Shown here: positions 44,029-63,703 of the stretch, piece by piece
How the letters are laid out: each line of letters opens with the position of its first letter
How positions within the stretch are numbered: position 1 is the first letter of the stretch
UHGV virus genome: UHGV-1430452
From: a virus
DNA: 64,000 bases
Reading direction: 5' to 3' (one strand)
Notes under the pieces: generated by a model
What the model saw: only the letters and a program-made list of their open reading frames with translations
What the model was told of the DNA's origin: nothing
Databases searched by the model: none
Made by a program: the position numbers and the translations under genes

Positions 44029-44967
44029 TCAAATCATGTTGAGAATATCCCCATCCACATTGAAATCAAGAAGAATAGTTCTCTCATAACCGTTCACGAA
44101 GTTACGATTTGCCTCGTTGTAAGTGTTATAGATTCCGAAATCTACGAAATTATCACCTACTGGATGTTTCTCGTCATAAATCCATCCAACAATCTGACCT
44201 GCCTGTGTACGCGGGATTCCGAGCATATCATATACTTCATTCAGGAACAGATGACCTTTCGTTTTCAACATGTCATTTGCATAACGCTGCTGATCTTTAA
44301 GGAACATTAGATTGAATTCAGGATCTTTAGTCCATCCTGTACATCCATCATCGAAGAATTTAGCATAATCGCTGTAACTGTCGAGAGTTGCTACATTTGC
44401 TGTTTTCTTAACAGTAGTTTCTGTACCATCTTCATTTACAACAGTCTCTTCGATTTCTTTTGCTTTGATGTTGTACTTCAGTTCTTTATCAAGCTCTTCA
44501 CCAAATCTCTCAATAACACGACCACGATATTCCTTGAAGCCTTTGTCAATAGTTGCATAAGCGGCTGCAAGTGCTAAGTTACGTTTACGAAGAATATGAT
44601 GACCACTAAGAATAGCAGCGATAGAAACTGTTCCAAGGATTACTGCTGGAGCATAAAGTTTTGCTACCTTTACGGCTGTTTGAGTATACATGATAGTTAA
44701 ATCTTTCTTACCATCTTCTTCTGTGTACTCTTTACCTTCTGGAACCATATCTGGATTTTCCATAAATTCATGAATTTTCTCGATTTTTTCTTTTGGCTCA
44801 GCGAGCACCTCATCGAGTTTAGTAGTTGCTTTACATGCCATTACAGCAGAGCCAACTACACCAACAATACCTGCGCCAACCAAGATTTCAGGGCTATGCT
44901 TTTTAAATTTAAAACCTACACGATGGAGGCTTCTAGTTACTGTGTTCATAATTTCTAATTTTGCCAT
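44029..44967 (-). CDS. two-TM-anchored modular protein (312 aa), paralog family A (N-terminal domain shared with 47042 and 49330; C-terminal domain shared with 21525)
   Basis: N-terminal ...PEILVGAGIVGVVGSAVMACKAT... and C-terminal FFDDGCTGWTKDPEFNLMFLKDQQRY blocks. Confidence 0.75.
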   Translation of the reverse strand: MAKLEIMNTVTRSLHRVGFKFKKHSPEILVGAGIVGVVGSAVMACKATTKLDEVLAEPKEKIEKIHEFMENPDMVPEGKEYTEEDGKKDLTIMYTQTAVKVAKLYAPAVILGTVSIAAILSGHHILRKRNLALAAAYATIDKGFKEYRGRVIERFGEELDKELKYNIKAKEIEETVVNEDGTETTVKKTANVATLDSYSDYAKFFDDGCTGWTKDPEFNLMFLKDQQRYANDMLKTKGHLFLNEVYDMLGIPRTQAGQIVGWIYDEKHPVGDNFVDFGIYNTYNEANRNFVNGYERTILLDFNVDGDILNMI

Positions 44968-44969
44968 GA

Positions 44970-45416
44970 TTATTTACTCTCCTTTTCTAATTCTTTACAA
45001 AATTCCATTAAACTTTTACCGCGAATAAGAATATCGTTTGGTGTTAAAACAATATCAGGTTCCTTGCTCTTATTCGGATTCTCAACATATTCAATAAGCC
45101 TATTGAGATACCACTGAGCTTTCTTTAAGTCCTCAATGCCGTTTTTCTTTTTCCAGCGACATAAATACTTCATTGCATTACCTGTACAAAATGCTTCTAA
45201 TCCGTTAAGACCATCACAAAAGGCCTCGATAACGTCGATAGTTTCGAGACCTGATTTTGACTGATAATGATCCGGATGATTCACCATATCGTTTTTGGCA
45301 ACCCATTGTGTCGGAATACAAAAAGGATCATCGCTCGTTATACAGTGTTTACAAGCTTCCGATCCCATTGTACGACCACAATTGTCACAATCATATTTGC
45401 TTTTTGTTATACTCAT
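44970..45416 (-). CDS. DUF3310-like phage protein
   Basis: NHPDHY...GLETIDVIEAF...GNAMKYLCRWKKK resembles the DUF3310 HPxHY signature. Confidence 0.6.
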   Translation of the reverse strand: MSITKSKYDCDNCGRTMGSEACKHCITSDDPFCIPTQWVAKNDMVNHPDHYQSKSGLETIDVIEAFCDGLNGLEAFCTGNAMKYLCRWKKKNGIEDLKKAQWYLNRLIEYVENPNKSKEPDIVLTPNDILIRGKSLMEFCKELEKESK

Positions 45417-45426
45417 AGTTTTCCTT

Positions 45427-45735
45427 TCAAATATAATCTTTTACCTTCTTGCCAGTGTTATAAATCTCTCGTTCGATTCCTAGACCAAAAGGTAATCTAA
45501 CACTCTCTAATTCAGACAGCATTACATAACCCCATTCCCATTCAAAAAGATGACAATAACCGTATAATAACCAGTCACCGTCATCTTGTTTTTCACCTTC
45601 TGTAATTAACCAGGTACCTGTTCCAGTTGGATTAAAATACTTAACTACTACATCAGCTTCTTCCATCTTTCCTTCCTGAGAACCAATCGGATAATTTTCA
45701 AAAGTTTTCTCCAATTCATCGGTCATTAGTAGCAT
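45427..45735 (-). CDS. conserved phage protein (102 aa)
   Basis: co-directional ORF; motifs YFNPTGTGTWLITE, WEWGYV. Confidence 0.65.
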   Translation of the reverse strand: MLLMTDELEKTFENYPIGSQEGKMEEADVVVKYFNPTGTGTWLITEGEKQDDGDWLLYGYCHLFEWEWGYVMLSELESVRLPFGLGIEREIYNTGKKVKDYI

Positions 45736-45767
45736 CGTAACGACACATCCTTATTGTGTATTTTTAT

Positions 45768-46376
45768 TTAGTCAATTGGCATAGCTTTTGGCAACTTAAG
45801 AACATATCCATCTTTAATTCTCACAGTCTCGGCAGTACGAATGTTTGTCCATCCGTATTTGTTACTTGTATACGGTGCTGGAAGAGCAGCCATATCATAC
45901 ATATCAGCTACAGTAACAAAGCCATATGTGTCTATAAGATCTACCATCTGTTCTCTTACAGCCTCACATTCACCGCGAGAATCAAACACAAGATCATCAT
46001 AATCAAACCGGCCTTTTGCACGTAGACCACCATCACGTCGATCGTCTTTCTTATCGTCATAATAACTTCGGTAAGATATCTTGTTCCCAGTCTTACGCTT
46101 ATTACTTCCAGAACCGCCGTAAAGAATCATGTCGGCACCATCAGTAACAATATCCAAGATTGCTTTCTTAATTGCTGGAATCAAAACATCCAAGACAATA
46201 TATGATTTAACATTAGCTGCATCTTCGGAAATGAACATGCTTGCTAATTTACGTCCTTCGTTTTTCTTCGTTTTCACTTTACCATTAACAACTTTCTGCA
46301 CCCTCTTTTCTTTCGTAGGCGCTTCAGTTGCTTTTTCTTCTTTGCTCTTATGAGAATTCGGTTGATATTCTCTCAT
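45768..46376 (-). CDS. hypothetical basic protein (202 aa)
   Basis: co-directional ORF. Confidence 0.7.
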   Translation of the reverse strand: MREYQPNSHKSKEEKATEAPTKEKRVQKVVNGKVKTKKNEGRKLASMFISEDAANVKSYIVLDVLIPAIKKAILDIVTDGADMILYGGSGSNKRKTGNKISYRSYYDDKKDDRRDGGLRAKGRFDYDDLVFDSRGECEAVREQMVDLIDTYGFVTVADMYDMAALPAPYTSNKYGWTNIRTAETVRIKDGYVLKLPKAMPID

Positions 46377-46390
46377 TTTCTTATCACCTC

Positions 46391-46594
46391 TTAATTAACC
46401 ATTTTGATTTCACCAGGCAATGTTATCCTCACACCTGGCAATAAATTTAATTGTTTCTTAGCCTGATAAGTTAAGTTACTCCTGGCTTTTTGTTTTGATG
46501 AAGCACTTGTTTCACCCTTCCAACGATCGATCATGCATTTATCAAACGACATTACAGGACCTTCGTATGTGTATTTGTCATACTCTTCGTTCAT
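46391..46594 (-). CDS. hypothetical protein (67 aa)
   Basis: co-directional ORF. Confidence 0.55.
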   Translation of the reverse strand: MNEEYDKYTYEGPVMSFDKCMIDRWKGETSASSKQKARSNLTYQAKKQLNLLPGVRITLPGEIKMVN

Positions 46595-46666
46595 TGTTAC
46601 CTCCTAGAAACAAAAAGAGAAGAGTCCCATAATTGAGACCCGTCTCTTTTTCGAATACTTTAAATG

Positions 46667-46972
46667 TTATTTCTCGGCTGCTTCCTCGTCGATTTCTTCC
46701 TCGATAACGGATTCATCTTCAGGTTCATCAACCTCTTCAACCTCGACCCATTTCAGTCTTTTCTTGGCTTTCTTCTTTTTAGGCTGCTCGTCTTTCTTTT
46801 TGGATTTGATTTTCTTGTAAGCTGCTGCTCCTAATGCAACTGCTCCAGCAATCAATCCTACTGTCAGACCGATAGCCTTTCCAGATCCACCTTCTTCTAC
46901 TGAATAGTCTTCCGGCTCCAGGTCAATAACCTCAACCTCGTTATCCATTACTTCGTCTTTGATTTCGCTCAT
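46667..46972 (-). CDS. membrane protein with Lys-rich tail (~101 aa); start trimmed to SD-supported ATG
   Basis: SD AAAGGAGGA before ATG at 46972; TM LTVGLIAGAVALGAAAY. Confidence 0.6.
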   Translation of the reverse strand: MSEIKDEVMDNEVEVIDLEPEDYSVEEGGSGKAIGLTVGLIAGAVALGAAAYKKIKSKKKDEQPKKKKAKKRLKWVEVEEVDEPEDESVIEEEIDEEAAEK

Positions 46973-47011
46973 AGCAAGATCCTCCTTTAAAATAATTTTA
47001 AGTATTTTCTT

Positions 47012-47036
47012 CATAAAGCACTGTGTATTTTTCGCG
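47012..47036 (-). promoter_or_regulatory. conserved promoter-like motif copy
   Basis: cataaagcactgtgtatttttcgcg. Confidence 0.5.
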
Positions 47037-47041
47037 TATGA

Positions 47042-47869
47042 TTAATAGTAGCTATCGAAACCATATTCCGGAGGCATCAGATGATCAATAACAATACACG
47101 GTTCATTATCTTCCGTAATTTGAGCACTATATCTCACATCGATTTTGCCTTTATCGATTCTCCAACCGATGCTATTACCAACTTCGGTATGCTTAAGACC
47201 AATTTCGTCATAGAAATCATTCAGAGAAATATACATCTCGTTACCGTTGATCATTCTCTCATTAAGAGTAAGAACAGCATTTTTAATCTTGTCGATATCC
47301 GATCTGAAATATCTGTCGGAATGACTGTCATAACACAACGTGTTACCTTTACCTGTCATGATAATCTGAGTGTCTGCAACCGGATGTTCTTCAACTTGCT
47401 TCTTAGCGACTTTATCTCTGATGTTATTTTCCTTCTTCTCTCCGATAGTCTCTACCACTTTCTCTCTGTAGTCAGACAGTGCTGTTGTAGATAACTGATA
47501 TGCTGTTGCCAATGCTGCGTTACGTCTTACATGTACGGAATTAGCACCGATAAGACAAGCGACTGACGCAATGCCAGTGATAGCTGCTGGAATATAAGGT
47601 TTCCAAGCTGCTTTTACTGTTTCGACAGGTGTGAGATTTAAAGCGTTTCTTTCGTCTTCTTCTGTGAAAATACCGCCTTCATGAGCTTCTTTCTCTTTAA
47701 ACTTCTTCTCTTCCTCGATTAACTCCATAGCTTTTGGTGTTGCTTTTACTGCAAGCACAACAGTAGATATCATACCTGCGATACCAATGCCAGTAAGAAT
47801 TTCCGGACTGCGTTTTTTCATTACATATTTTGCAGTGTTTAAAAATTTTGTTACATTTGGTTTGTTCAT
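47042..47869 (-). CDS. two-TM-anchored modular protein, paralog family A (275 aa)
   Basis: N-terminal domain aligns with 44029 and 49330. Confidence 0.75.
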   Translation of the reverse strand: MNKPNVTKFLNTAKYVMKKRSPEILTGIGIAGMISTVVLAVKATPKAMELIEEEKKFKEKEAHEGGIFTEEDERNALNLTPVETVKAAWKPYIPAAITGIASVACLIGANSVHVRRNAALATAYQLSTTALSDYREKVVETIGEKKENNIRDKVAKKQVEEHPVADTQIIMTGKGNTLCYDSHSDRYFRSDIDKIKNAVLTLNERMINGNEMYISLNDFYDEIGLKHTEVGNSIGWRIDKGKIDVRYSAQITEDNEPCIVIDHLMPPEYGFDSYY

Positions 47870-47957
47870 TTTTTATCTCCTTTCATGAACAGTTAAATTG
47901 TTTTTACCAAAAATCCCACTCGGGAAAATTTTGATCTTGAAAAAATAGAAATCGAAA

Positions 47958-48029
47958 AGAAACAGTGTAGGACTCGAACCCACAACCTACAGATATAAGT
48001 CTGTTGCTCTACCAATTGAGCTAACTGTT
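47958..48029 (-). tRNA. tRNA with atypical anticodon loop, probable anticodon TAT (Ile)
   Basis: acceptor AAACAGT/ACTGTTT, D-arm GCTC-AATTGGTA-GAGC, T-loop TTCGAGT; anticodon stem ACAG/CTGT with loop containing CTTATAT (6 or 8 nt by hand). Confidence 0.6.
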
Positions 48030-48034
48030 TCTTC

Positions 48035-48061
48035 TCATAATAGCGCTTGTAAATTTCGCGA
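48035..48061 (-). promoter_or_regulatory. conserved promoter-like motif copy directly upstream of the tRNA
   Basis: cataatagcgcttgtaaatttcgcgaa. Confidence 0.55.
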
Positions 48062-48106
48062 ATATAGATCTTCAGAAACAAAAAAGAAGAACCCCGAAGG
48101 ATTCTC

Positions 48107-48277
48107 CTAGACTTTCTTCTGAAGCTCAGAAACTGCTTTCTTCAACTCTTCAAACTCCTTTTCTTTTTTCTGATCTGATAATGCACCTGCTATAGCCATA
48201 ATACCTGTTACTACAACACCTGCATATTTTCCGACAGACTTCAGAAGCGGATTATTGATAATACCTTTGAATTTCAT
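48107..48277 (-). CDS. small glycine-zipper membrane protein (56 aa)
   Basis: missed by track; SD AAGGAGACGAG; KYAGVVVTGIMAIAGALS. Confidence 0.5.
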   Translation of the reverse strand: MKFKGIINNPLLKSVGKYAGVVVTGIMAIAGALSDQKKEKEFEELKKAVSELQKKV

Positions 48278-48301
48278 TTTTCTCGTCTCCTTTCTTCATT
48301 C

Positions 48302-48327
48302 CATTAAAGGAAATGTTTTTGTCGCGA
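48302..48327 (-). promoter_or_regulatory. conserved promoter-like motif copy
   Basis: cattaaaggaaatgtttttgtcgcga. Confidence 0.55.
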
Positions 48328-48364
48328 TACCGGTTTCGCTATATCAAAATATCATCGTTTATCG

Positions 48365-48853
48365 TCACCCGTGTATGGGTAAATCCATTTTGATTTTGTC
48401 AGGATTCATAATGAGGATACTATCGCAGTCCCAGCCATACAGATCCCAATATAACTGATGATCAGCTGATAAATTTAACTCGATGGCATCATAGCCAAGT
48501 TCAATGCATTTCTCGAAATCTATCAGTGTACTTATTGATTTCCATACCGGGTCAGCAATTGTTGGAAGTTCCTTTAATTTTTCTACGGAATCTATAACGA
48601 ATATATTGGCTTCCGGAAGAGTGAATATGAAACTATTTTCTTCAATACATTCACGAAAATTTTCTCTTTCACACCAGTCTTTCCAACCTAATTTGGCATC
48701 TATCGGACTAGCCCAAAGACCTCCTCTAGGTTTAACCCAGCATTGCTCATTTTGAATAGGTTTAAATAAGTTTGGATTAAAAGTTGCATGTCCGTAATGA
48801 ATATAAATCTTGTCTTGCATATTACTATCCTTTCGTTCAAAAACATATGTCAC
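48365..48853 (-). CDS. hypothetical protein (162 aa)
   Basis: co-directional ORF. Confidence 0.7.
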   Translation of the reverse strand: MTYVFERKDSNMQDKIYIHYGHATFNPNLFKPIQNEQCWVKPRGGLWASPIDAKLGWKDWCERENFRECIEENSFIFTLPEANIFVIDSVEKLKELPTIADPVWKSISTLIDFEKCIELGYDAIELNLSADHQLYWDLYGWDCDSILIMNPDKIKMDLPIHG

Positions 48854-48860
48854 TTAGTAA

Positions 48861-48893
48861 CAAAAAGAAAAGAGGCCCCTATTTCAGGACCTC
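48861..48893 (-). terminator. rho-independent terminator overlapping the stop of 48879..49082
   Basis: stem GAGGUCC/GGGCCUC then UUUUCUUUUUG. Confidence 0.6.
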
Positions 48894-49082
48894 AAATTTC
48901 TCTTTTTTATTTTTCTTGATTTTATTCTCAACGGATTCTTTCCATTGATTCGCTTTAGTTGCCACTGCCTGTCTGACTTCTGGAATAGCAAGTGCCGAAC
49001 CGACAACCGTTACTGCCGGCACAACAATCTGTCCAATCCAAAGTCTTACTTCTCTCATAGCATCAATATTTTTGCGTTTCAT
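48879..49082 (-). CDS. small membrane protein (67 aa)
   Basis: TM IVVPAVTVVGSALAI; own motif and terminator. Confidence 0.65.
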   Translation of the reverse strand: MKRKNIDAMREVRLWIGQIVVPAVTVVGSALAIPEVRQAVATKANQWKESVENKIKKNKKEKFEVLK

Positions 49083-49114
49083 AGTTTTATCCTCCTTTAA
49101 AAATATAATCTTTT

Positions 49115-49140
49115 CATTAAAGGCGTTGTTTATTTAGCGA
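49115..49140 (-). promoter_or_regulatory. conserved promoter-like motif copy
   Basis: cattaaaggcgttgtttatttagcga. Confidence 0.55.
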
Positions 49141-49349
49141 GTGTAATGGATATGCTCATTGTTTAATTCGTCGAGATGTTTAATAAAATCTAAATATCTT
49201 TTATTTCGTCTATTCTCCACAAAGTTTATAACTAACCAAGCAATCCCTACGATAGGCAAGCCAACGAATACTAATAGAAATAGTAAGCATGTAATCATAG
49301 AAACAAGCGTATTCATAAATCTTCTCCTTTCAATACTCTTCGTAATCAA
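49134..49349 (-). CDS. small membrane protein (71 aa)
   Basis: two hydrophobic segments; track start may overextend into the motif. Confidence 0.55.
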   Translation of the reverse strand: MITKSIERRRFMNTLVSMITCLLFLLVFVGLPIVGIAWLVINFVENRRNKRYLDFIKHLDELNNEHIHYTR

Positions 49350-50106
49350 TGAACGGCTCTGTGAAATCTACAATATAACATTCAATACCGTCGTCCATTT
49401 CTACTTTTGTATGGTGGAAATATAGCCAACCATCCCAGTACATTTCATACATCTGAGCTGCGGACCAACCCATAAATTCACCGTAATCCTGTCGATCAAT
49501 CTCTAGTAAATCGTAATAATCGTTTAAAGATGCACCACCGGATTGAGATAGCATTTTATTAATCTCATACTCTGCTCTCAATTGAGTTTCTTTCGTCACA
49601 CGGTAATAACGTTTGGAATATTCATCGTAGAATAGTGTTTTGCCATCCTCGTATTCGTCGTCATATTCTTCTTTGTCTTCTTCCTCGTAATGGTCTTTTG
49701 CTACAGCAGCACGAATGAGTTTGTCTCCGTCTTCACCATATAACTTTTTAACTTTGTTTTTGTACTCTTTGTGAGTTTGGTCTAGTAAGGCATAAGCAGA
49801 TGCGATGGCTGCTTGGGAATGTTTGTTTAATAGATTCGCGCCAAATATGCAAGCTAGGGTTCCTGTTCCAATCAATAAGGAAGGAATATATGTTGGTCCT
49901 GCTACTCGAATAGTCTCCCATTTTGTTAATTCATCTCCTTTCTCTTCTTCAGCTAGTTCAATAAGTTCCATTGCTTTCGGAGTAGCTTTAACCGCCATTA
50001 CAGCTGTACCTACCACTCCGGCAGCTCCTAATACTGTTAATATAGTAGAGCTGTTTTTCTTTACGAATCTTTTCGAAACTGTTAGTAAGTCATTCATTTC
50101 CAGCAC
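49330..50106 (-). CDS. two-TM-anchored modular protein, paralog family A (258 aa)
   Basis: N-terminal domain aligns with 44029 and 47042. Confidence 0.75.
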   Translation of the reverse strand: MLEMNDLLTVSKRFVKKNSSTILTVLGAAGVVGTAVMAVKATPKAMELIELAEEEKGDELTKWETIRVAGPTYIPSLLIGTGTLACIFGANLLNKHSQAAIASAYALLDQTHKEYKNKVKKLYGEDGDKLIRAAVAKDHYEEEDKEEYDDEYEDGKTLFYDEYSKRYYRVTKETQLRAEYEINKMLSQSGGASLNDYYDLLEIDRQDYGEFMGWSAAQMYEMYWDGWLYFHHTKVEMDDGIECYIVDFTEPFIDYEEY

Positions 50107-55836: not shown

Positions 55837-56052
55837 CTCTCGCTGTATTTGTCGCTTATCTGCAACAACACGAGAATATCACCAGCTTACTTTTTCTGTC
55901 AATAACTTTTTCGCATAAAACGAAAACGATTTATTCTAGAATACAATTTATTTGCATATATGCGATTTTGTGTGTATCATATGGATTGATAAGAGAAGAA
56001 TAAGAAAGAGTCCTAAGACTCATCTTCGCGATAGTATAAAGGAGTTAACCGA
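55837..56052. promoter_or_regulatory. divergent-promoter/operator region of the lysogeny switch; contains palindromes GCATATATGC, ATTCTAGAAT and GAGTC-CTAA-GACTC
   Basis: intergenic between divergently oriented HTH genes; palindromes read directly. Confidence 0.55.
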
Positions 56053-56649
56053 ATGACAATAGGACAAAAAATAAAAGAATTACGCAATCAACTTAATATG
56101 TCGGTGGATGATCTTGCTGTGAAACTGGGTAAGAACCGTGCGACTATCTACCGCTATGAACGAGGAGATATCGAGAACCTCCCTCTCGATGTACTAGAAC
56201 CATTAGCAAATGCTCTTGAGACCACACCTGGTTATTTAATGGGATGGGAAGAAACTACGAAAAAGAAAGAGCCTTCAATTATCGATGAAGTTACCATGGG
56301 TGACGTTTTTAAAGCGTTACGTCTAGGAAGTAATTTATCGATAGAGGAATTTTCGCATGAGATTGGATTATCTGCCCAAGACATAAGCAATTATGAAGCA
56401 GGAAAGACTCCTATACCTGTAAATATAATTAATCTTGTTGCTGATTTCTTTGGCATATCAATAGCGGAAATAGTTAAGGCACACAAAAACAGCGAAAATA
56501 GAACGCCTTCTGGTTTCGAAATGAAAAAGGAACGATTTGAACGTTTTAAAGTTTGGAATAAAGAGTTTGGACGAATACATTTTACTGATGAAGAAATCAA
56601 TAAAATAATGGAATATACAAGGTTCTTACTTAGCCAAAGAAGACAGTAA
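56053..56649 (+). CDS. XRE-family transcriptional regulator with two HTH domains (198 aa), CI-like
   Basis: HTHs LNMSVDDLAVKLGKNRATIYRYERG and LSIEEFSHEIGLSAQDISNYEAG; SD AAAGGAG. Confidence 0.8.
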   Translation: MTIGQKIKELRNQLNMSVDDLAVKLGKNRATIYRYERGDIENLPLDVLEPLANALETTPGYLMGWEETTKKKEPSIIDEVTMGDVFKALRLGSNLSIEEFSHEIGLSAQDISNYEAGKTPIPVNIINLVADFFGISIAEIVKAHKNSENRTPSGFEMKKERFERFKVWNKEFGRIHFTDEEINKIMEYTRFLLSQRRQ

Positions 56650-56734
56650 GTCTACATAGGTTTACTCTATTTAAAGGAGGTGATGCCTGAATTCAGTTCA
56701 TCGTAGAATTTACATCAAAGGAAAGGTGGAACCA

Positions 56735-58312
56735 ATGACAACGTTTGATATGAACAACGCTGTAGACAATGCGTTCGGTATGGACGTATATGCTATCTAT
56801 CTTCGGAAAAGTCGAGCCGATGTAGAAGCAGAAAAACTTGGAGAAGGAGAAACACTAGCAAGGCATAGAAAGATACTAACAGAACTTGCTGCTAGAAAAG
56901 GATTGTATATCGGTAAGATTTACGAGGAAATTGTATCTGGTGAAACAATCGAAGCTAGACCTGAAATACAAAAACTGATAGAAGATTGTTATAAAGGGAA
57001 ATATAGAGGAATCCTAATAGTAGAAGTTACTCGTCTATCTCGTGGTAATCAAGGAGACGCTCAAAAAATACTCGACTGTCTCAAATATTCGAATAGAAAC
57101 AATGGTGTATTAGTTATCACTCCTACTAAGACTTATGACGTTGCACACAGCCAAGAAGACGAAGAATATATGGAGTTTGAATTGTTTATGTCTCGTCGAG
57201 AATATAAGATGATTCAAAAGCGTATGGATCGTGGCCGTAAACAAGCAGTCGTAGAAGGAAACTTCATGGGTAGTTACCGTCCCTATGGATATGACATCTT
57301 AAAAACCAAGACCGGACGAACACTTATACCGAATGAAGATGAAGCTCCTATCGTGAAAATGATTTACGAATGGACAGTTAACGATAATTTATCTCCTTTC
57401 AAGATAGCTGAGCGTTTAACTAATATGGGTGTTCCTACTTATTATGGTGAGAAGGATTGGTCTAAAGAAACAGTTAAAACCATTTTGACGAATCAGACAT
57501 ACATGGGTAAAGTTCGTTGGAATGATCGAATGACTGTTAAGACTATGGTCGACGGAGAACTTAAAGCTACACGACCTCGTTCAAATCATTCCGATCACTT
57601 CATGCTATATGATGGAAAACATATGAAACACGCACTCGTCGACGAAGAAACATTCAAAGCAGCCTCCTCTCGCTTTCATAACGATAGGACAAGATCAAAT
57701 CTAAAACTTGTTAATCCTCTTGCAGGACTTCTATTTTGTAAGAAATGTGGTAAATCTATGGGTTATCAATCATATAGACATAAGAAAAACGGACCAATGG
57801 ATCGATACAATCATAGACAGTCTGCTAATGGATGCAAGGTTAAGTCAGCAGTTGCTGAGGATGTTATAAAAGCTGTTATACATGCTTTGAAACTTTATAT
57901 AGAAGATTTCGAATTTAAGTTAGACAACACTCCAGATGTTGACGAAAATTCAATCAATACGCAGCTCGAAGCTTTACAAAAAGAAATACGAAAATCCGAA
58001 CGAAAACTTGCTAAGCTATTCGATTCTTGGGAAGATGAGAAGATAACAGATAATGAATTTGTTCAAAGGAAAGCCGTCCATAATCAGAAGATAGAAAATA
58101 TAAAGAGGCAAATGGAAGAACTCGAATATTCGATACCAGAAAGAGAAGAATATGAGGATAAAATAATATTGCTGTCTGAAGCACTTGTCGCTATCACAGA
58201 CGAATCGCTTGACGCAGATATTAAGAACGAGTATCTTAAAAGAATCATTGATAGAATAGAGTTTAGTAGAGAGAATAACTCAGAGTTTATACTAGATATA
58301 GACTTATGCTAA
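56735..58312 (+). CDS. large serine recombinase (phage integrase)
   Basis: N-terminal YAIYLRKSRAD catalytic-Ser motif, zinc ribbon CKKCGKS...C, C-terminal coiled coil; start moved to ATG with SD AAAGGTGGA. Confidence 0.85.
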   Translation: MTTFDMNNAVDNAFGMDVYAIYLRKSRADVEAEKLGEGETLARHRKILTELAARKGLYIGKIYEEIVSGETIEARPEIQKLIEDCYKGKYRGILIVEVTRLSRGNQGDAQKILDCLKYSNRNNGVLVITPTKTYDVAHSQEDEEYMEFELFMSRREYKMIQKRMDRGRKQAVVEGNFMGSYRPYGYDILKTKTGRTLIPNEDEAPIVKMIYEWTVNDNLSPFKIAERLTNMGVPTYYGEKDWSKETVKTILTNQTYMGKVRWNDRMTVKTMVDGELKATRPRSNHSDHFMLYDGKHMKHALVDEETFKAASSRFHNDRTRSNLKLVNPLAGLLFCKKCGKSMGYQSYRHKKNGPMDRYNHRQSANGCKVKSAVAEDVIKAVIHALKLYIEDFEFKLDNTPDVDENSINTQLEALQKEIRKSERKLAKLFDSWEDEKITDNEFVQRKAVHNQKIENIKRQMEELEYSIPEREEYEDKIILLSEALVAITDESLDADIKNEYLKRIIDRIEFSRENNSEFILDIDLC

Positions 58313-58373
58313 ATGGTGGCTTTGCTGCCTGTAAGACCTGCACTAAAATGGTGTAGGTAACTTTTTCCCCGAC

Positions 58374-58421
58374 ATATATATCATGGTTGTGTTTCTTTTA
58401 TATCGCCACCATGATATATAT
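58374..58421. other. candidate attP: perfect 14-bp inverted arms ATATATATCATGGT / ACCATGATATATAT flanking a 20-bp asymmetric core
   Basis: read directly, 62 bp downstream of the integrase stop; no U-tract so unlikely a terminator. Confidence 0.4.
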
Positions 58422-58468
58422 CACAGGGAAACTATTCTAAACGTTGATATATCAAGGAGGAGATATAC

Positions 58469-58720
58469 ATGAGAATAGTATGGAAAGACAGTGCGCCTAA
58501 AACAAAACCTTGGTTGACGTTCAAATATAGAGAACATATCGTTAGCCAATATGGAGATGGATGGATTACCGATATACCTGGTGATAACAATATCTATTTT
58601 CCGAGAGAGTGTGCTTATAATGCAATCGATAAGTCTCTAGGTGGAAAGACACGAAAAGCTAATCCTCAAAGACATAAATTAGGAATAAAAGTTATTGGTA
58701 GAAAGGACGATGTATCATGA
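58469..58720 (+). CDS. small protein (83 aa), tandem paralog 1 (MRIVWKDS family)
   Basis: SD AAGGAGGAG; shares MRIVWKDS...GDNN.Y...NAID...G.K.IG.K.D with the next ORF. Confidence 0.7.
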   Translation: MRIVWKDSAPKTKPWLTFKYREHIVSQYGDGWITDIPGDNNIYFPRECAYNAIDKSLGGKTRKANPQRHKLGIKVIGRKDDVS

Positions 58721-58968
58721 GAATCGTATGGAAAGATAGTCATAAGCCAAAAGAATATGAACCTATGAAATATCGAAATATTTACATCTTCGGTACTCCT
58801 GAAGGATGGGAAGTAAATATAAAAGGAGATAATAATCTATACAAGACTCATTACTGTGCTATGAATGCGATTGATGATTACTTTGGAGATTTTGGAGAAC
58901 GTGGTACAGAAAAACGTAAACGATATGGAATACAAATAATAGGTAAGAAAAATGATGAGACTGCATGA
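58717..58968 (+). CDS. small protein (83 aa), tandem paralog 2
   Basis: ATGA overlap with paralog 1. Confidence 0.7.
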   Translation: MRIVWKDSHKPKEYEPMKYRNIYIFGTPEGWEVNIKGDNNLYKTHYCAMNAIDDYFGDFGERGTEKRKRYGIQIIGKKNDETA

Positions 58969-59016
58969 ATCTCAAAAGCCACTTCCTTTTCTGGAGGTGG
59001 CATATTTTTATCTAGG

Positions 59017-59568
59017 TTAGACATTTCTATTTTCGTATGACGTAAATTTTACATTTGTGTACTCGTTAACCAAAAAGCTACATGCTTCATTAACTGTTTT
59101 AACGACGGATTCCCCTTCTATATAACTCTGATAATTCCTTCTTTGATTTTCAAATTTAAGATCAGGTTCAACCATGGTATCTACACTTAACCATATTAGT
59201 TCCGTAGTATAGTCTTCGGTAAAATATCCTTTTATAAAAACCTCTTTCTTTCCAACCGTTCCGATTAGTTTTATAAACGACATATCATGCTTCGTCAGAT
59301 TAAACGCATATCTTATTCCTTTTACATATTGCCCGCCAAGTTTCCTCGACTTAATTGTTTCATAGTAATTATCTTTATTGTTGTTCTTTTTATGCCACTC
59401 ATCCGATATACAAATCCACATTAAAAGTTCGCTTAAAGTTGCAACCATGGATATGCTATTTTGTTTGTCGCTTGTGCTTAAATATTCATGAAATCTTTTA
59501 TGAGATTCTCTTAATCCATGGTTTATATACATTAGCCTAAATTCTTCGACACTATTCATTATCTGCAT
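59017..59568 (-). CDS. hypothetical protein (183 aa), stand-alone unit between integrase region and lysis genes
   Basis: isolated minus-strand ORF. Confidence 0.65.
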   Translation of the reverse strand: MQIMNSVEEFRLMYINHGLRESHKRFHEYLSTSDKQNSISMVATLSELLMWICISDEWHKKNNNKDNYYETIKSRKLGGQYVKGIRYAFNLTKHDMSFIKLIGTVGKKEVFIKGYFTEDYTTELIWLSVDTMVEPDLKFENQRRNYQSYIEGESVVKTVNEACSFLVNEYTNVKFTSYENRNV

Positions 59569-59625
59569 TCCTCCTTTTATCGTAATATTCGACCATATAG
59601 GAGAAATTTCCTTTTAACCATATGA

Positions 59626-59657
59626 AGAAAAATAAAAGGGGCTGTTTTATTCGCCCC
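59626..59657 (-). terminator. rho-independent terminator
   Basis: stem GGGGC/GCCCC loop 10 nt then UUUUAUUUUUC. Confidence 0.65.
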
Positions 59658-59664
59658 AATTATT

Positions 59665-59973
59665 TTACATCTTGTGTGAAATCTCCTCGCAATGCTTTTC
59701 CAATGATTTGATTCGTTCTTCGTGACCCTGATTTTGAATTTTCAGCTCGTCTATTTCAGATCCATGATTCGTAACCCGAGTCTTCAAGTTATTAATCATC
59801 TCGGTCAAGAAGTTTATAGTCGCGTTGAGTTTGATTATGTTTTCGTTTAGCTTTTCGATAGGCTCATTTTTAGAATGTTCTTCCTGAGTAATATCCTTCC
59901 TCAGTTTCATATAGAAAGCGAACACTGAGCCTATGACTGTTAAGACAATGATTATAACTTGATTCTCTGCCAT
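59665..59973 (-). CDS. membrane-anchored coiled-coil protein (102 aa), lysis-associated by position
   Basis: N-terminal TM IIIVLTVIGSVFAFY then coiled coil. Confidence 0.6.
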   Translation of the reverse strand: MAENQVIIIVLTVIGSVFAFYMKLRKDITQEEHSKNEPIEKLNENIIKLNATINFLTEMINNLKTRVTNHGSEIDELKIQNQGHEERIKSLEKHCEEISHKM

Positions 59974-59975
59974 AG

Positions 59976-60269
59976 TTATTTTTCCTTCGCTGTATTATTA
60001 TCGTCTTTCTTACCTTCTACAAATCTACTAAATCCCTGATGTAGACCTGTAGATGCCAGACCCATAACTGCACCATATACGATGGAATCGACAGAGATGC
60101 CGCTTACTGCCGTATTCAATGCTGCGCCGACAACAGCCAGGATGACTGGAATATCGTCGTTAGGGATACGTTTTAAAAAAGTCGCATGTTTGATGATATA
60201 TCCAACCACCAGACAAGCGACCATTACTACAAGTACGAAATGTTCAGTTAAAATTTTTGCGAAATCCAT
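59976..60269 (-). CDS. putative phage holin (97 aa)
   Basis: two TM helices, charged C-terminal tail; sits just downstream of tail fibre genes. Confidence 0.65.
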   Translation of the reverse strand: MDFAKILTEHFVLVVMVACLVVGYIIKHATFLKRIPNDDIPVILAVVGAALNTAVSGISVDSIVYGAVMGLASTGLHQGFSRFVEGKKDDNNTAKEK

Positions 60270-60293
60270 TTTGAATTACCTTCCTTTCTTTTA

Positions 60294-60929
60294 CTAATTA
60301 ACTTTTTCCCATCCAGCAGGATATGCCTCAGGGGAGTACACGTTGTTATCGATAAGTGAAACGTACTTCTCGTTATTGAATGTTATCTTATCTCCCTTTT
60401 TATATGCCGTCTCAGCGTTGATCGGCTGTTTAAATTCTGGATACTCAACGTTAGGATCTGAGATTTCAACATACAAGGACGGAGAAACATCCGGCTTCCA
60501 TTCTTCAGTAGATGTGAACGGATCTGACGCGACAACCTTATAGAATTTATCCTGATAGATAAAGCGATCTCCTTTGCTATATGTAACTCCCACAACATAT
60601 TCCGGATACATATATCTCATAATATAAGCATCTTTGTCAGAAGCTTGTTTAAGTGTAAGATCGAACTGCAACTCTTCAAGTTTCTTAGTTCCTTCTTCGA
60701 TAGCTGCTTCTTTTTCTTTTTCTTTCAGGATATTATTGTAATGCTCTTCGTCATAAACTAGATGGTATTTCTTATCCTCTTCGTTAAGTTTCAAAGCATA
60801 ACAATGTAATTTGGAAAGATCCACAACAGTATCATCGAGAATCGCACAAATATAATTATTGCGTAATTGACGAAGAGAAATGTTAGTTATCTCTCCATTG
60901 ACGTTTTCCGCTTCAACATAAACATTCAT
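60294..60929 (-). CDS. hypothetical protein (211 aa), possibly tail-fibre associated
   Basis: co-directional ORF downstream of tail fibre gene. Confidence 0.65.
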   Translation of the reverse strand: MNVYVEAENVNGEITNISLRQLRNNYICAILDDTVVDLSKLHCYALKLNEEDKKYHLVYDEEHYNNILKEKEKEAAIEEGTKKLEELQFDLTLKQASDKDAYIMRYMYPEYVVGVTYSKGDRFIYQDKFYKVVASDPFTSTEEWKPDVSPSLYVEISDPNVEYPEFKQPINAETAYKKGDKITFNNEKYVSLIDNNVYSPEAYPAGWEKVN

Positions 60930-60945
60930 TGCTCATCACCTCCCC

Positions 60946-61281
60946 TTAAACATCAACAGCCCCCGTATAGGAAGGCTGAGTTTTTAACCAATCGTATGCA
61001 TTTTGAATTAGATCGCCTATAAGTAGTTTCTGAGCCTCATCCCATTCAATGCTAAGATAATCCATGTTGGTGTATGGAAAAGATGGCTCTCCTATGATTC
61101 TACCAGCCATATAATCCTTATCGTATTGACGACCTTCTTTATCAATGTACGATTCTACAATAATAGTAGCTCGCTGATTAATTTCTACGTTAATGGCGGC
61201 AATATGATGATAGCTTACTACTACACCATTAGCGGTTTTAATGTTTACTTCTATAGCCAAAATATCACTCCTAAACTCCAA
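60946..61281 (-). CDS. hypothetical protein (111 aa), possible tail-fibre assembly factor
   Basis: overlaps tail fibre gene end by 11 nt. Confidence 0.6.
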   Translation of the reverse strand: MEFRSDILAIEVNIKTANGVVVSYHHIAAINVEINQRATIIVESYIDKEGRQYDKDYMAGRIIGEPSFPYTNMDYLSIEWDEAQKLLIGDLIQNAYDWLKTQPSYTGAVDV

Positions 61282-63703
61282 TTACTTGTCTAAGAACAAA
61301 CCTGTTATTGGTATAAGCAACTCCATTGTTTCCCTGTCCGGTATAGTTATTTTCAACCCCACCGGTGAGTTTGCCATCAGATATGTTCAATACTTTAACA
61401 CTCGCATATCCGCAAACTTCAGACATAAGCGTGAAACACCACGGTTTTCCTGAGTATGTAGAAACAGCGCTTTTAGGCACGAAGAAGCTATGTAATCTTG
61501 TATTAGTAGCAGACCCATTATAATAGTCAGAGAATATCAATACGATTCCATGAGGTTGATTTGATACAGGGCTACTAAAAGTTATGGTATGAGTATTACT
61601 CGGCCATAAACTTCCGGTCCATAGTGTATTATTTGTAAACCTTTCGGTAACTGAACCTCTTACAAAGCCATTATCAGCAGTAAACGTCATAGCAGTTCTG
61701 ATACTGTGAGGGGAATATGAATCTGTTGGGGTCATGAGAAAATAATTTTCGCTACTCCCATCAACTTTTCTAGCAAACATTTTTACTGTAGGACTGACTC
61801 CTCCTCTATCCCCTTTAACGCTAACATAAGAAGCCACACCATCGTGTGACTCAAAATTTGCTAACATATCAGCAATATCTGCTCTTAATACCACGCGATA
61901 CTCTCCATCATAGCGGCTAGTGTAAATTGTTTCAGTAGTTGAGGCAGCATTAGCTTCGTATGTAATGATTGGATCATCATCATCTTCGAAATAAACGAGA
62001 ACATCGTCTGTAAATGCTTCATCGTTTTCGATGACTAAAGTACCTTTTACAGTAGATATCTTACCTCTACCGTTATTCATGGATATTACTGTATTATCTG
62101 AATTTTTCCCGAGATCTATTAACGATTCACCAAAAGTAGCCAACTCAGTAATTCCGTTTCTCATTTCGATGTCTGTACTACTAATAAGAATATTTCTGCC
62201 AAGAGTTGATGTTCTCTTATCAGCAACCATAAGTCCATTAGCATCGAAACCGAGGAAGTTTGTAGCGGTTTTAGCAGCTTCTACAGCCTGACCATAAGGA
62301 TCAATCCAGCTACTCCATGTTGAAGTTGAAGTTCCAACACGCCAATATTCTTTTCCAGTACCTTCGACTTTGGCTGTCTGTCTCGGATATCCTCCGCTAG
62401 TATCTTTGTACGGCATATCAGTTCGTAAATGACAGTAAGTCCCTACTCCAGACAATCCTATAGTAGAACAATACTTGAATTCGGCAACTGATGTACTAGG
62501 ATAATTATTTATGTAATATAGCGGCGGGTAATTCGAATTTTTGGTATCTTTTACGTCAAGTCCGTCGCCTTTTGGTCCTTGTGGTCCAGTAGGTCCTTGT
62601 GGTCCTGTTGCGCCTGTACTACCAGTTTCTCCTCGTGGTCCAGTAGGTCCTTGTGGTCCAGTGGCTCCTGTGGCTCCGGTGTTACCAGTAATACATACAC
62701 CATTAGATGATGGAGTATATGATGTAGTGTTGTCTGTGTACGTTACCAGTGTTCTTCTCCAAATATACTTTCCATCAGCCCACGTAGGTTGACTCGTACT
62801 CCATGATCCACCTGTTAATGTTGTCGGGGAATTGGATGAATAGAACTGTTCTTGTGTACTTTTTATGGTAGAACCCAGTGTTACGCTCAATCCATTAGCA
62901 GTCTGTTCTAGAGTAGAGACCTCGCCTTCCAAATCTGTTACTTTCGAACTTAAACCACTGGCAGTCTGTTCTACCGTACTAACCCTGTTTCCAAGAGAAG
63001 TAGTTTCCTGTACATTTGCTTCTATTCTGTCAGCATTTTGATCGATACTGGATTTAGCGTTTGTTAGATCTGTAGTGAGCTTCGATACATCCGAAGTTAA
63101 GCCATCAGCAGTCTGTTCAAGCGTGCTTGTCCTGACACCTAATTCATTTGTGGCGTTCACATTTGCTGTAATACGTTCTCTTTCTATGTTCAGATCAGCT
63201 TCGTACTCCGTTCTGAGGTCATTCACGGCTTCCCATGAACTATCACAAACTGGGCTTGTGTATGCATTTGACGTTGGGTTCTTATACGTAATGAGATATC
63301 TCGTCCATAAATACATACCAGTAGACCAGGTAGGCATGGAAGTTACCCATGACCCGCCTGTCTGTGTTGTTTTGGAAGTGCTTAAATAATATTGCTGAGT
63401 GATGCTATCAATGCCAGTACCAGTAGGACCCTGAGATCCTGTTGCCCCGTCGGTTCCATTCTTAGGTATGTAAGATACTGAATATGTTGTAGATGTATCA
63501 CCCTCTGTATATGTAATGACGGTTCTGCTCCACAAATACTGTCCAGGTGATACAGAGGGGATTGTCGTACTCCATGTACCGTTTGGAGGATTTGTGCCTG
63601 ACGTACCAGCCTGATAAGTTATGACTGTGGATGTAATTCCCTTGCCGTCTATTCCGTCTATAATGTCCGAGATAGTAACCTCGGCTTTAGCTATCACAGC
63701 CAA
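61271..63703 (-). CDS. tail fibre protein with collagen-like Gly-X-Y repeats (810 aa)
   Basis: GNTGATGATGPQGPTGPRGETGSTGATGPQGPTGPQGPKGDG plus shorter GxY runs; coiled-coil/Thr-rich segments. Confidence 0.85.
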   Translation of the reverse strand: MAVIAKAEVTISDIIDGIDGKGITSTVITYQAGTSGTNPPNGTWSTTIPSVSPGQYLWSRTVITYTEGDTSTTYSVSYIPKNGTDGATGSQGPTGTGIDSITQQYYLSTSKTTQTGGSWVTSMPTWSTGMYLWTRYLITYKNPTSNAYTSPVCDSSWEAVNDLRTEYEADLNIERERITANVNATNELGVRTSTLEQTADGLTSDVSKLTTDLTNAKSSIDQNADRIEANVQETTSLGNRVSTVEQTASGLSSKVTDLEGEVSTLEQTANGLSVTLGSTIKSTQEQFYSSNSPTTLTGGSWSTSQPTWADGKYIWRRTLVTYTDNTTSYTPSSNGVCITGNTGATGATGPQGPTGPRGETGSTGATGPQGPTGPQGPKGDGLDVKDTKNSNYPPLYYINNYPSTSVAEFKYCSTIGLSGVGTYCHLRTDMPYKDTSGGYPRQTAKVEGTGKEYWRVGTSTSTWSSWIDPYGQAVEAAKTATNFLGFDANGLMVADKRTSTLGRNILISSTDIEMRNGITELATFGESLIDLGKNSDNTVISMNNGRGKISTVKGTLVIENDEAFTDDVLVYFEDDDDPIITYEANAASTTETIYTSRYDGEYRVVLRADIADMLANFESHDGVASYVSVKGDRGGVSPTVKMFARKVDGSSENYFLMTPTDSYSPHSIRTAMTFTADNGFVRGSVTERFTNNTLWTGSLWPSNTHTITFSSPVSNQPHGIVLIFSDYYNGSATNTRLHSFFVPKSAVSTYSGKPWCFTLMSEVCGYASVKVLNISDGKLTGGVENNYTGQGNNGVAYTNNRFVLRQVIGV
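62570..62705 (-). repeat. collagen-like Gly-X-Y triplet repeat region within the tail fibre gene
   Basis: GPxGPxG periodicity; produces a mirror ORF on the plus strand. Confidence 0.8.

Follow-up and report, generated by a model that had tools for sequence, protein, structure and literature searches.

Fewer than ~30 recombination directionality factors (RDFs) of large serine integrases are known, and the search for them is difficult, since homology and synteny are usually both lacking (PMC12286644, PMC11795197). No fold is common to these proteins, which are small or diverse (PMC11795197, PMC12286644). In SPbeta, the integrase gene sprA adjoins one attachment (att) site, immediately upstream of ypqP, and sprB, which encodes a 58-aa RDF, adjoins the other; sprB is kept in every SPbeta-like element (PMC4191935). 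The int, att and rdf components act as an exchangeable "site-specific recombination (SSR) unit" (PMC6957869). We analyzed a similar arrangement in the virus genome UHGV-1430452, a stretch of 64,000 nucleotides referred to below as the window, in which two small adjacent genes, ORF A and ORF B (together A/B), are separated by attP from the gene of a SprA-like large serine integrase. A/B, present as one copy or two, move together with this type of integrase and attP as a single exchangeable recombination module and are not cargo. By analogy with SPbeta, we tentatively favor the view that they encode an integrase accessory factor or RDF, with a probability of roughly 35%.

The window represents a free phage genome, that of a large temperate siphophage of gut Clostridia; this follows from its intact attP, as opposed to the host DNA that stands at the small gene in integrated relatives. 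The gene order is repressor, SprA-like large serine integrase (int), terminator, attP, A and B, the latter converging on ORF C and the genes of an XhlA-like protein and a holin. The features on which the argument depends are the following:

56726..58312, plus strand: large serine integrase, 528 aa, SprA-like (Pfam Resolvase, Recombinase and Zn_ribbon_recom; phrog_95 integrase, 1e-91)
58336..58358, plus strand: terminator-like hairpin and T-run right behind int (terminator scan; RNA fold -13.2 kcal/mol)
58364..58431, no strand: attP, a 68-bp inverted repeat with 24-nt arms (88% complementary) and a 20-bp spacer (repeat search; phage/integrated pairs)
58444..58455, no strand: perfect palindrome TTGATATATCAA between attP and the ribosome-binding site (RBS) of A, resembling the att arm sequence (sole exact match in the window)
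58469..58720, plus strand: ORF A, 83 aa, A-type, net basic (ORF call; BLASTP against B)
58717..58968, plus strand: ORF B, 83 aa, B-type paralog (ORF call; family clusters; AlphaFold2 (AF2) model)
58978..59001, no strand: hairpin between the convergent B and C (terminator scan; folds at -17.6 kcal/mol on the plus strand and -12.8 kcal/mol on the minus strand)

The RDF or accessory-factor reading was ranked first because this layout (SprA-like integrase, attP, conserved small gene) matches that of SPbeta. As in SPbeta, the small gene adjoins, on the phage side, the att site at the end away from the integrase, attP stands between int and the small gene when the element is circular, integration occurs within a host gene, and the small gene is kept in all relatives of the element. 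The only matches of the integrase among PDB sequences are to SPbeta SprA/YokA (E 1.7e-47). The two systems differ in their target, which is spsM for SPbeta and the exodeoxyribonuclease III gene (xth) here, and in the number of small genes: SPbeta has a single SprB, while the phages described here have two paralogs in some cases and one in others.

ORFs A, B and C are real genes, and their coordinates agree with the initial annotation, which had described A and B as tandem paralogs on the plus strand and C as a minus-strand gene for a 183-aa protein with its own terminator. A and B share a 4-nt ATGA overlap, both begin with MRIVWKDS, and each is preceded by a Shine-Dalgarno-like sequence (AAGGAGGAG ahead of A, GAAAGGA ahead of B). 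Their paralogy is well beyond chance, since BLASTP aligns them with 42% identity across 83 aa (E 7e-21). In contrast to the net basic A, B is nearly neutral, and no signal peptide or transmembrane segment was detected in the A/B sequences. The AF2 model of B (predicted local distance difference test, pLDDT, 75) has the topology beta4-alpha2-beta. The hairpin at 58978-59001 is likely a bidirectional terminator.

Besides the window, the palindrome TTGATATATCAA is present upstream of the small gene in one related locus (L037) and partly in another (L008); it is absent from most loci. We also observed a 26-nt inverted repeat, 81% complementary, which could pair the attP core and P' arm (58394-58419) with the RBS and start codon of A (58447-58472). 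In a transcript crossing attP this repeat could cause translational occlusion, or it could have arisen by chance in AT-rich sequence.

A/B constitute a small, unannotated, beta-rich protein family of ~75-90 aa. It comprises 92 clusters at 90% identity in a word-indexed search and 88 clusters at 50% identity when 1.84 billion representatives were searched exhaustively with a profile. Nearly all members are stand-alone proteins of 75-90 aa, and the most that is offered as annotation is "hypothetical protein", from one Frisingicoccus sp. entry. The mean column identity of the family is 31%; the conserved positions are D7, Y19/R20, G30-W31, D38, N40, Y42, A48, N50, A51, D53, G57, R67 and G71, and a KR-rich C-terminal segment is conserved as well. 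Neither A, B nor 59 diverse family members matched any entry of Pfam, PHROGs, PADLOC or NCBIfam, and a profile search of PDB sequences and a search of BFVD gave no match for the family. In a tblastn search of GenBank phages, B identified a single unannotated faecal scaffold. When genome contigs were searched with profiles, that of the small protein confirmed no locus, and that of the integrase did recover loci. Two long surface-type repeat proteins, P0186 (1024 aa) and P0187 (1285 aa), showed weak multi-stretch matches to the GW...Y...A.NAID center of the profile (E ~1e-5); these are probably repeat-driven noise.

The initial annotation had further proposed a defence, exclusion or toxin-antitoxin function for the genes of this region. 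None of A, B and C matched a known family that would give them such an identity (Pfam, PHROGs, PADLOC, NCBIfam), and the PADLOC-DB defence models returned 0 families at E<=10 for the three proteins. No homologs with an established structural or housekeeping function were found either. The notion that A and B form a type II toxin-antitoxin pair was rejected, as the two are mutual paralogs, the gene often occurs as a single copy, and no toxin-antitoxin family was matched.

The linkage of A/B to the integrase was examined in related loci (given L numbers) drawn from the faecal phage scaffold, public assemblies, IMG/VR and GTDB genomes. A search with the small protein revealed the integrase directly upstream in ~30 loci, and in all phage-form loci with at least 2 kb of upstream sequence the small gene stands immediately behind an integrase ortholog (59-92% identity). 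The reverse search, performed with the integrase, identified 21 viral loci (62-92% identity), adding ~10 that the small-protein search had not caught. The small gene follows attP in 20 of the 21, and in the last one the contig stops 71 bp past int. After dereplication, 36 loci contain both int and the small gene, 13 of them with two copies and 23 with one. In two-copy loci the order is always A-type followed by B-type, and the A-type orthologs (49-95% identical) occupy the same position. No A/B gene is carried by sister phages that share the backbone (orf139, DUF6353 and a similar holin) but have another serine integrase (449-458 aa). The remaining genes between A/B and the tail genes, i.e. 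C, an amidase and extra holins, vary by phage. Since A/B are constant with the integrase type while the other genes of this slot vary, they behave as part of an exchangeable int-attP module.

These results divide the genes that the initial annotation had grouped together as moron-like cargo next to the integrase. The cargo interpretation suits C, which is insulated by terminators, has no homolog in ~95 related loci bearing A/B or this integrase, and has close homologs in the lysis-to-att slot of sister phages; it does not suit A/B. The region as a whole resembles the lysis-to-att moron region of Firmicutes prophages, in that A, B and C are located between the holin/XhlA genes and attP and that C is provided with an RBS and bordered by terminators, but A/B are invariant with the integrase type, whereas moron genes are normally patchy. 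A and B do follow the integrase on the same strand, as had been stated; however, the terminator-like hairpin at 58336-58358 and attP intervene. Their integrase-proximal position is true of the circular form only, since in the lysogen they are placed at the other end, next to attL.

The att sites were mapped by comparing phage forms with integrated forms. In phage-form loci, an inverted repeat of the kind seen in the window stands between int and the small gene. In the integrated loci (L001, L018, L021, L027, L029-L032, L040-L045 and L088), host DNA directly abuts the small gene, and for the majority of these loci the abutting DNA is an xth 3' part, on the opposite strand, broken at the conserved GDxNVAH motif. 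Two matched phage/integrated pairs (L028/L027 and L020/L021) are identical rightwards from TTTA and unrelated leftwards. The host sequence common to all integrated forms is ...GCGACGTTTA. We infer that the crossover takes place at TTTA, at ~58396-58400, which is the center of symmetry of the inverted repeat in the window. These junctions indicate that the elements integrate into xth, with the crossover in the catalytic GDxNVAH motif (L018, L021, L027, L029-32, L040-45, L080, L081, L085 and L088). In its P' arm, attP carries a mimic of the xth coding sequence (...IYHGGD...). To judge from its relatives, xth is presumably also the target of the window phage: L010 has an attP identical to that of the window and an integrase 92% identical, and L029 has a near-identical P' arm. 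Because attP lies between int and A, integration places A/B and int at opposite ends of the prophage; the prophage then begins, at attL, with A/B and ends, at attR, with int.

In many relatives an xth 3' fragment is located between int and attP, and it rebuilds a full-length xth ORF at attR. This was seen in L016, L017, L020, L022-25, L028 and L048, where int and attP are ~420 bp apart, and in L088 (6706-7530), whose composite xth ORF has an in-frame duplication of ~20 aa (CGDLN...CGDLN). The window phage does not carry such a fragment, and its integration should therefore truncate xth. In a Lawsonibacter metagenome-assembled genome (L082, 9537-11424), the 3' part of xth stands behind the integrase on the same strand and overlaps the end of int, in an orientation opposite to that of the other integrated relatives.

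If A/B act as an RDF, they would be expected to contact the integrase at the junction of its DNA-binding domain 2 (DBD2) and coiled coil, to make it recombine attL x attR in place of attP x attB, and to prevent re-integration following excision, which is the part that SprB plays in SPbeta. The paralogs A and B might form a heteromer, or each might serve different integrase states. With the RDF gene directly across attP from int, integration would carry it to the opposite end of the prophage, and in some phages the RDF would be represented by two paralogs, possibly cooperating. It is possible, if doubtful, that A/B are a new beta-rich RDF family belonging to the xth-targeting, SprA-like serine integrase clade, with the gene across attP from int. 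In keeping with the RDF reading, A/B share their element with a large serine integrase and are inherited along with it in the 36 non-redundant loci, and their size falls within the range of small RDFs. The RDFs TP901-1 Orf7, A118 gp44, phiRv1 Xis, phiJoe gp52, phiC31 gp3 and Bxb1 gp47 are small or in other ways unrelated phage proteins that share no motif and were identified via their cognate integrases; the PDB and BFVD searches revealed no homology of A/B to any of them. Synteny with int is absent for most known RDFs, whereas A/B are strictly syntenic.

Divergence of the small protein correlates with that of the integrase (Mantel rho 0.35-0.58, p<=0.001), most strongly for the zinc-ribbon DBD2 segment (0.52), and shows no correlation with that of the repressor (0.02). 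Several observations nevertheless speak against a role of A/B in directing the integrase. In a linkage control on the same loci, the value for the small protein and integrase (0.33-0.38) is similar to that for the integrase and repressor (0.35), so that the co-variation is indecisive, as physical linkage alone could explain it; L015 and L016 are also off the trend (integrase 59-63%, B 68-78%). Three natural variants (L007, L011 and L012) have lost the repressor gene and int and yet kept B, and L012 keeps A too. L088, a 6-kb prophage remnant in xth, contains A and B intact and an integrase without its first ~115 residues, i.e. the catalytic N-terminus. A divergent family member is found, on contigs of 1-1.3 kb, within an array of small genes, with no integrase in the short flanks available. 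No sequence or fold similarity of A/B to SprB or other known RDFs was found; SprB (YotN) is a helical protein of 58 aa, in contrast to the beta-rich A/B of 83 aa, and to our knowledge there is no precedent for tandem paralogous RDFs. An induction-responsive route of expression also lacks support, as a sigma-70 promoter scan between attP and A gave no site, and a repressor operator common to the immunity region and the sequence upstream of A was sought and not found.

Deletions of the repressor-integrase block recur among the relatives. Some of them end at attP (L012), and others have produced fusions (P0154 and P0188) in which the integrase N-terminus is followed by the small protein's C-terminal half. 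Such deletions may be lytic escape derivatives or aberrant recombination products.

An alternative view of A/B, which we consider unlikely, is that they are prophage-expressed lysogenic-conversion genes, for example with a role in superinfection exclusion, anti-defence or the inhibition of a host protein, that have nothing to do with recombination and were duplicated in an arms race. Their conservation next to the att site would then parallel that of paratox, which is retained at the end of streptococcal prophages. Morons accumulate in the lysis-to-att region, where A/B stand beside the variable C, but they are normally patchy, whereas A/B are present in every checked integrase relative and gone when the integrase type is swapped. 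Duplication, high divergence (the mean column identity of 31%) and the occurrence of one- and two-copy states are typical of conflict genes, and the persistence of intact A/B in elements without a functional integrase (L012 and L088), together with the array member that has no integrase in view, would be readily explained in this way. The expression and location expected of conversion genes fit less well, as no promoter was evident in the scan and the proteins have neither a signal peptide nor a transmembrane segment.

It is very doubtful that A/B are small DNA-binding proteins with a beta-sheet-plus-helix fold like that of AP2 or integrase arm-binding domains and that they bind at or near attP/attL or at their own palindrome. 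Such proteins would be an architectural factor or a regulator of lysogeny or late genes, e.g. an autoregulated switch that reads the integration state. The AF2 model, with three to four strands followed by a helix, is compatible with this idea, and hhalign pairs the YRG / GW / A.NAID motifs of the family with YRG / GKW / AA.AYD of AP2; however, the hhalign probability is only 3%, against an AP2 profile built from approximate sequences, and Pfam AP2 or Integrase_AP2 was matched by 0 of 59 members. AP2 homology was not accepted on this basis. The net basic charge of A and the conserved KR-rich C-terminal segment would suit DNA binding, as would the unique 12-bp palindrome between attP and the RBS of A, but B is nearly neutral and the palindrome is missing from most loci. 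The RDF or accessory-factor reading, as the one best matched by the layout of the locus, is therefore retained as the favored, albeit tentative, explanation of A/B.

ORF C and the remaining genes around the module have the following coordinates:

56053..56649, plus strand: repressor-like protein, 198 aa, with two helix-turn-helix (HTH) domains of the HTH_3 type, first gene of the lysogeny module (NCBIfam RstR/DicA-type HTH matches)
59017..59568, minus strand: ORF C, 183 aa, a rare accessory protein, helical bundle with a small beta insertion (ORF call; AF2 model; homolog searches)
59629..59666, minus strand: terminator-like hairpin and U-run closing the tail/lysis operon, upstream of C (RNA fold -15 kcal/mol, z -3.4)
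59665-59973, minus strand: XhlA-like transmembrane/coiled-coil protein, end of the late operon (weak XhlA/SlyX-type coiled-coil matches)
59976-60269, minus strand: Hol44-type holin (Pfam PF16079, 1e-11; phrog_1129 holin, 1e-21)

ORF C is best described as a rare, sporadic, terminator-insulated accessory gene in the lysis-to-att cargo slot. It is preceded by the RBS AAAGGAGG and flanked by the hairpins at 58978-59001 and 59629-59666, the latter of which separates it from the upstream XhlA-like gene; the terminator ascribed to it by the initial annotation was thus found. Among 5.8 billion sequences, the family comprises 12 close clusters, extended to 22 by a profile search. In sister phages with the other integrase, this slot behind the lysis genes and ahead of att/int contains close homologs of C, whose upstream neighbors vary (an RNA ligase, or unknown proteins of 202 and 155 aa). 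Distant homologs are located within the late operons of Bacillales prophages, between Sipho_Gp37-type tail genes and holin/amidase genes. In a Lysinibacillus fusiformis prophage (L056/L057, 5210-5740 and 7001-7546), two C-like paralogs, the second of them weaker, surround a Sipho_Gp37 tail gene, which hints that the family may have been tail- or late-operon-associated at first. Searches with C and 12 close homologs gave no family in Pfam, PADLOC or NCBIfam at E<=1-10 and no HEPN/Abi profile match; C had no match among PDB sequences at E<=10, none in a tblastn search of GenBank phages, and in PHROGs a weak one to phrog_30856 alone (function unknown).

The AF2 model of C is good (pLDDT 84, predicted TM-score (pTM) 0.82) and gives weak matches to HEPN-like folds, which raises the possibility of a HEPN-type RNase toxin or abortive-infection effector, i.e. 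a prophage defence moron. We find this rather improbable. The sporadic, insulated occurrence in a cargo slot and the invariant helix motif A88-x-N90-x-x-K93-H94 (E47, W51, W58, W126, N145 and Y146 are also invariant in the family) would be in agreement with it, but C departs from the Rx4-6H motif: R86 and H94 are 7 residues apart, and R86 is replaced by K in P0191 and by L in P0195, both distant homologs. C as a canonical HEPN RNase was rejected on this motif. Compared with HepT/HepN-MNT toxins and HEPN-type Abi proteins, C belongs to a tiny family (22 clusters), has no adjacent gene for a cognate MNT antitoxin and remains without a match in HEPN, Abi, PADLOC, NCBIfam or PDB sequence searches, and the late-operon location of its distant homologs suggests a virion or lysis-associated role. 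The idea of a defence moron, as applied to C, is neither supported nor excluded. It was also rejected that C is the missing endolysin, as the protein is all-helical, contains no lysin domain, and has homologs that follow a bona fide amidase in L052.

Nearly the entire window is occupied by a single large phage transcribed from the minus strand, and the only plus-strand genes are those of the repressor-like protein, the integrase, A and B. As these abut the leftward tail and lysis genes, A/B/C stand at the border between the lysogeny module and the end of the late operon. The early and replication genes extend from position 1 to ~55,800 and encode, among others, a 1408-aa DUF5906 primase-helicase-like protein, a helicase, a DUF2800 protein and three DUF6353 paralogs (312, 275 and 258 aa, at 44029-50106), which are likewise multi-copy in related phages. 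The right side, running leftwards, contains a collagen-repeat tail fibre gene (61271-63703) followed by genes of a CBM5/12 protein, the Hol44-type holin and the XhlA-like protein. The repressor-like gene is syntenic in related loci, where Pfam identifies HTH_3/HTH_19/HTH_31. No endolysin gene adjoins the holin and XhlA-like genes in the window (59665-60929) or in L002-type relatives, and the lysin of the window phage may be located outside the window; other relatives (L006 and L052) carry Amidase_2+LysM or Amidase_3 beside the holin. A megablast search of GenBank phages with 56000-61000 produced zero matches.

The main product of this analysis is a candidate RDF family together with a mapped attP/attB pair; it contains nothing categorically new. 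C adds a further orphan cargo family, with weak hints of a HEPN-like fold. Even if A/B are not RDFs, they represent a conserved att-proximal phage protein family without a known fold relative. The strict synteny, combined with attP and attB (xth) mapped from natural phage/prophage pairs, makes this a cheap and directly testable family of RDF candidates, which could become a new reversible integrase tool. If the RDF reading is true, the locus would supply a complete new set of integrase, attP, attB and RDF, and A/B would be one of the rare RDFs that can be found by synteny.
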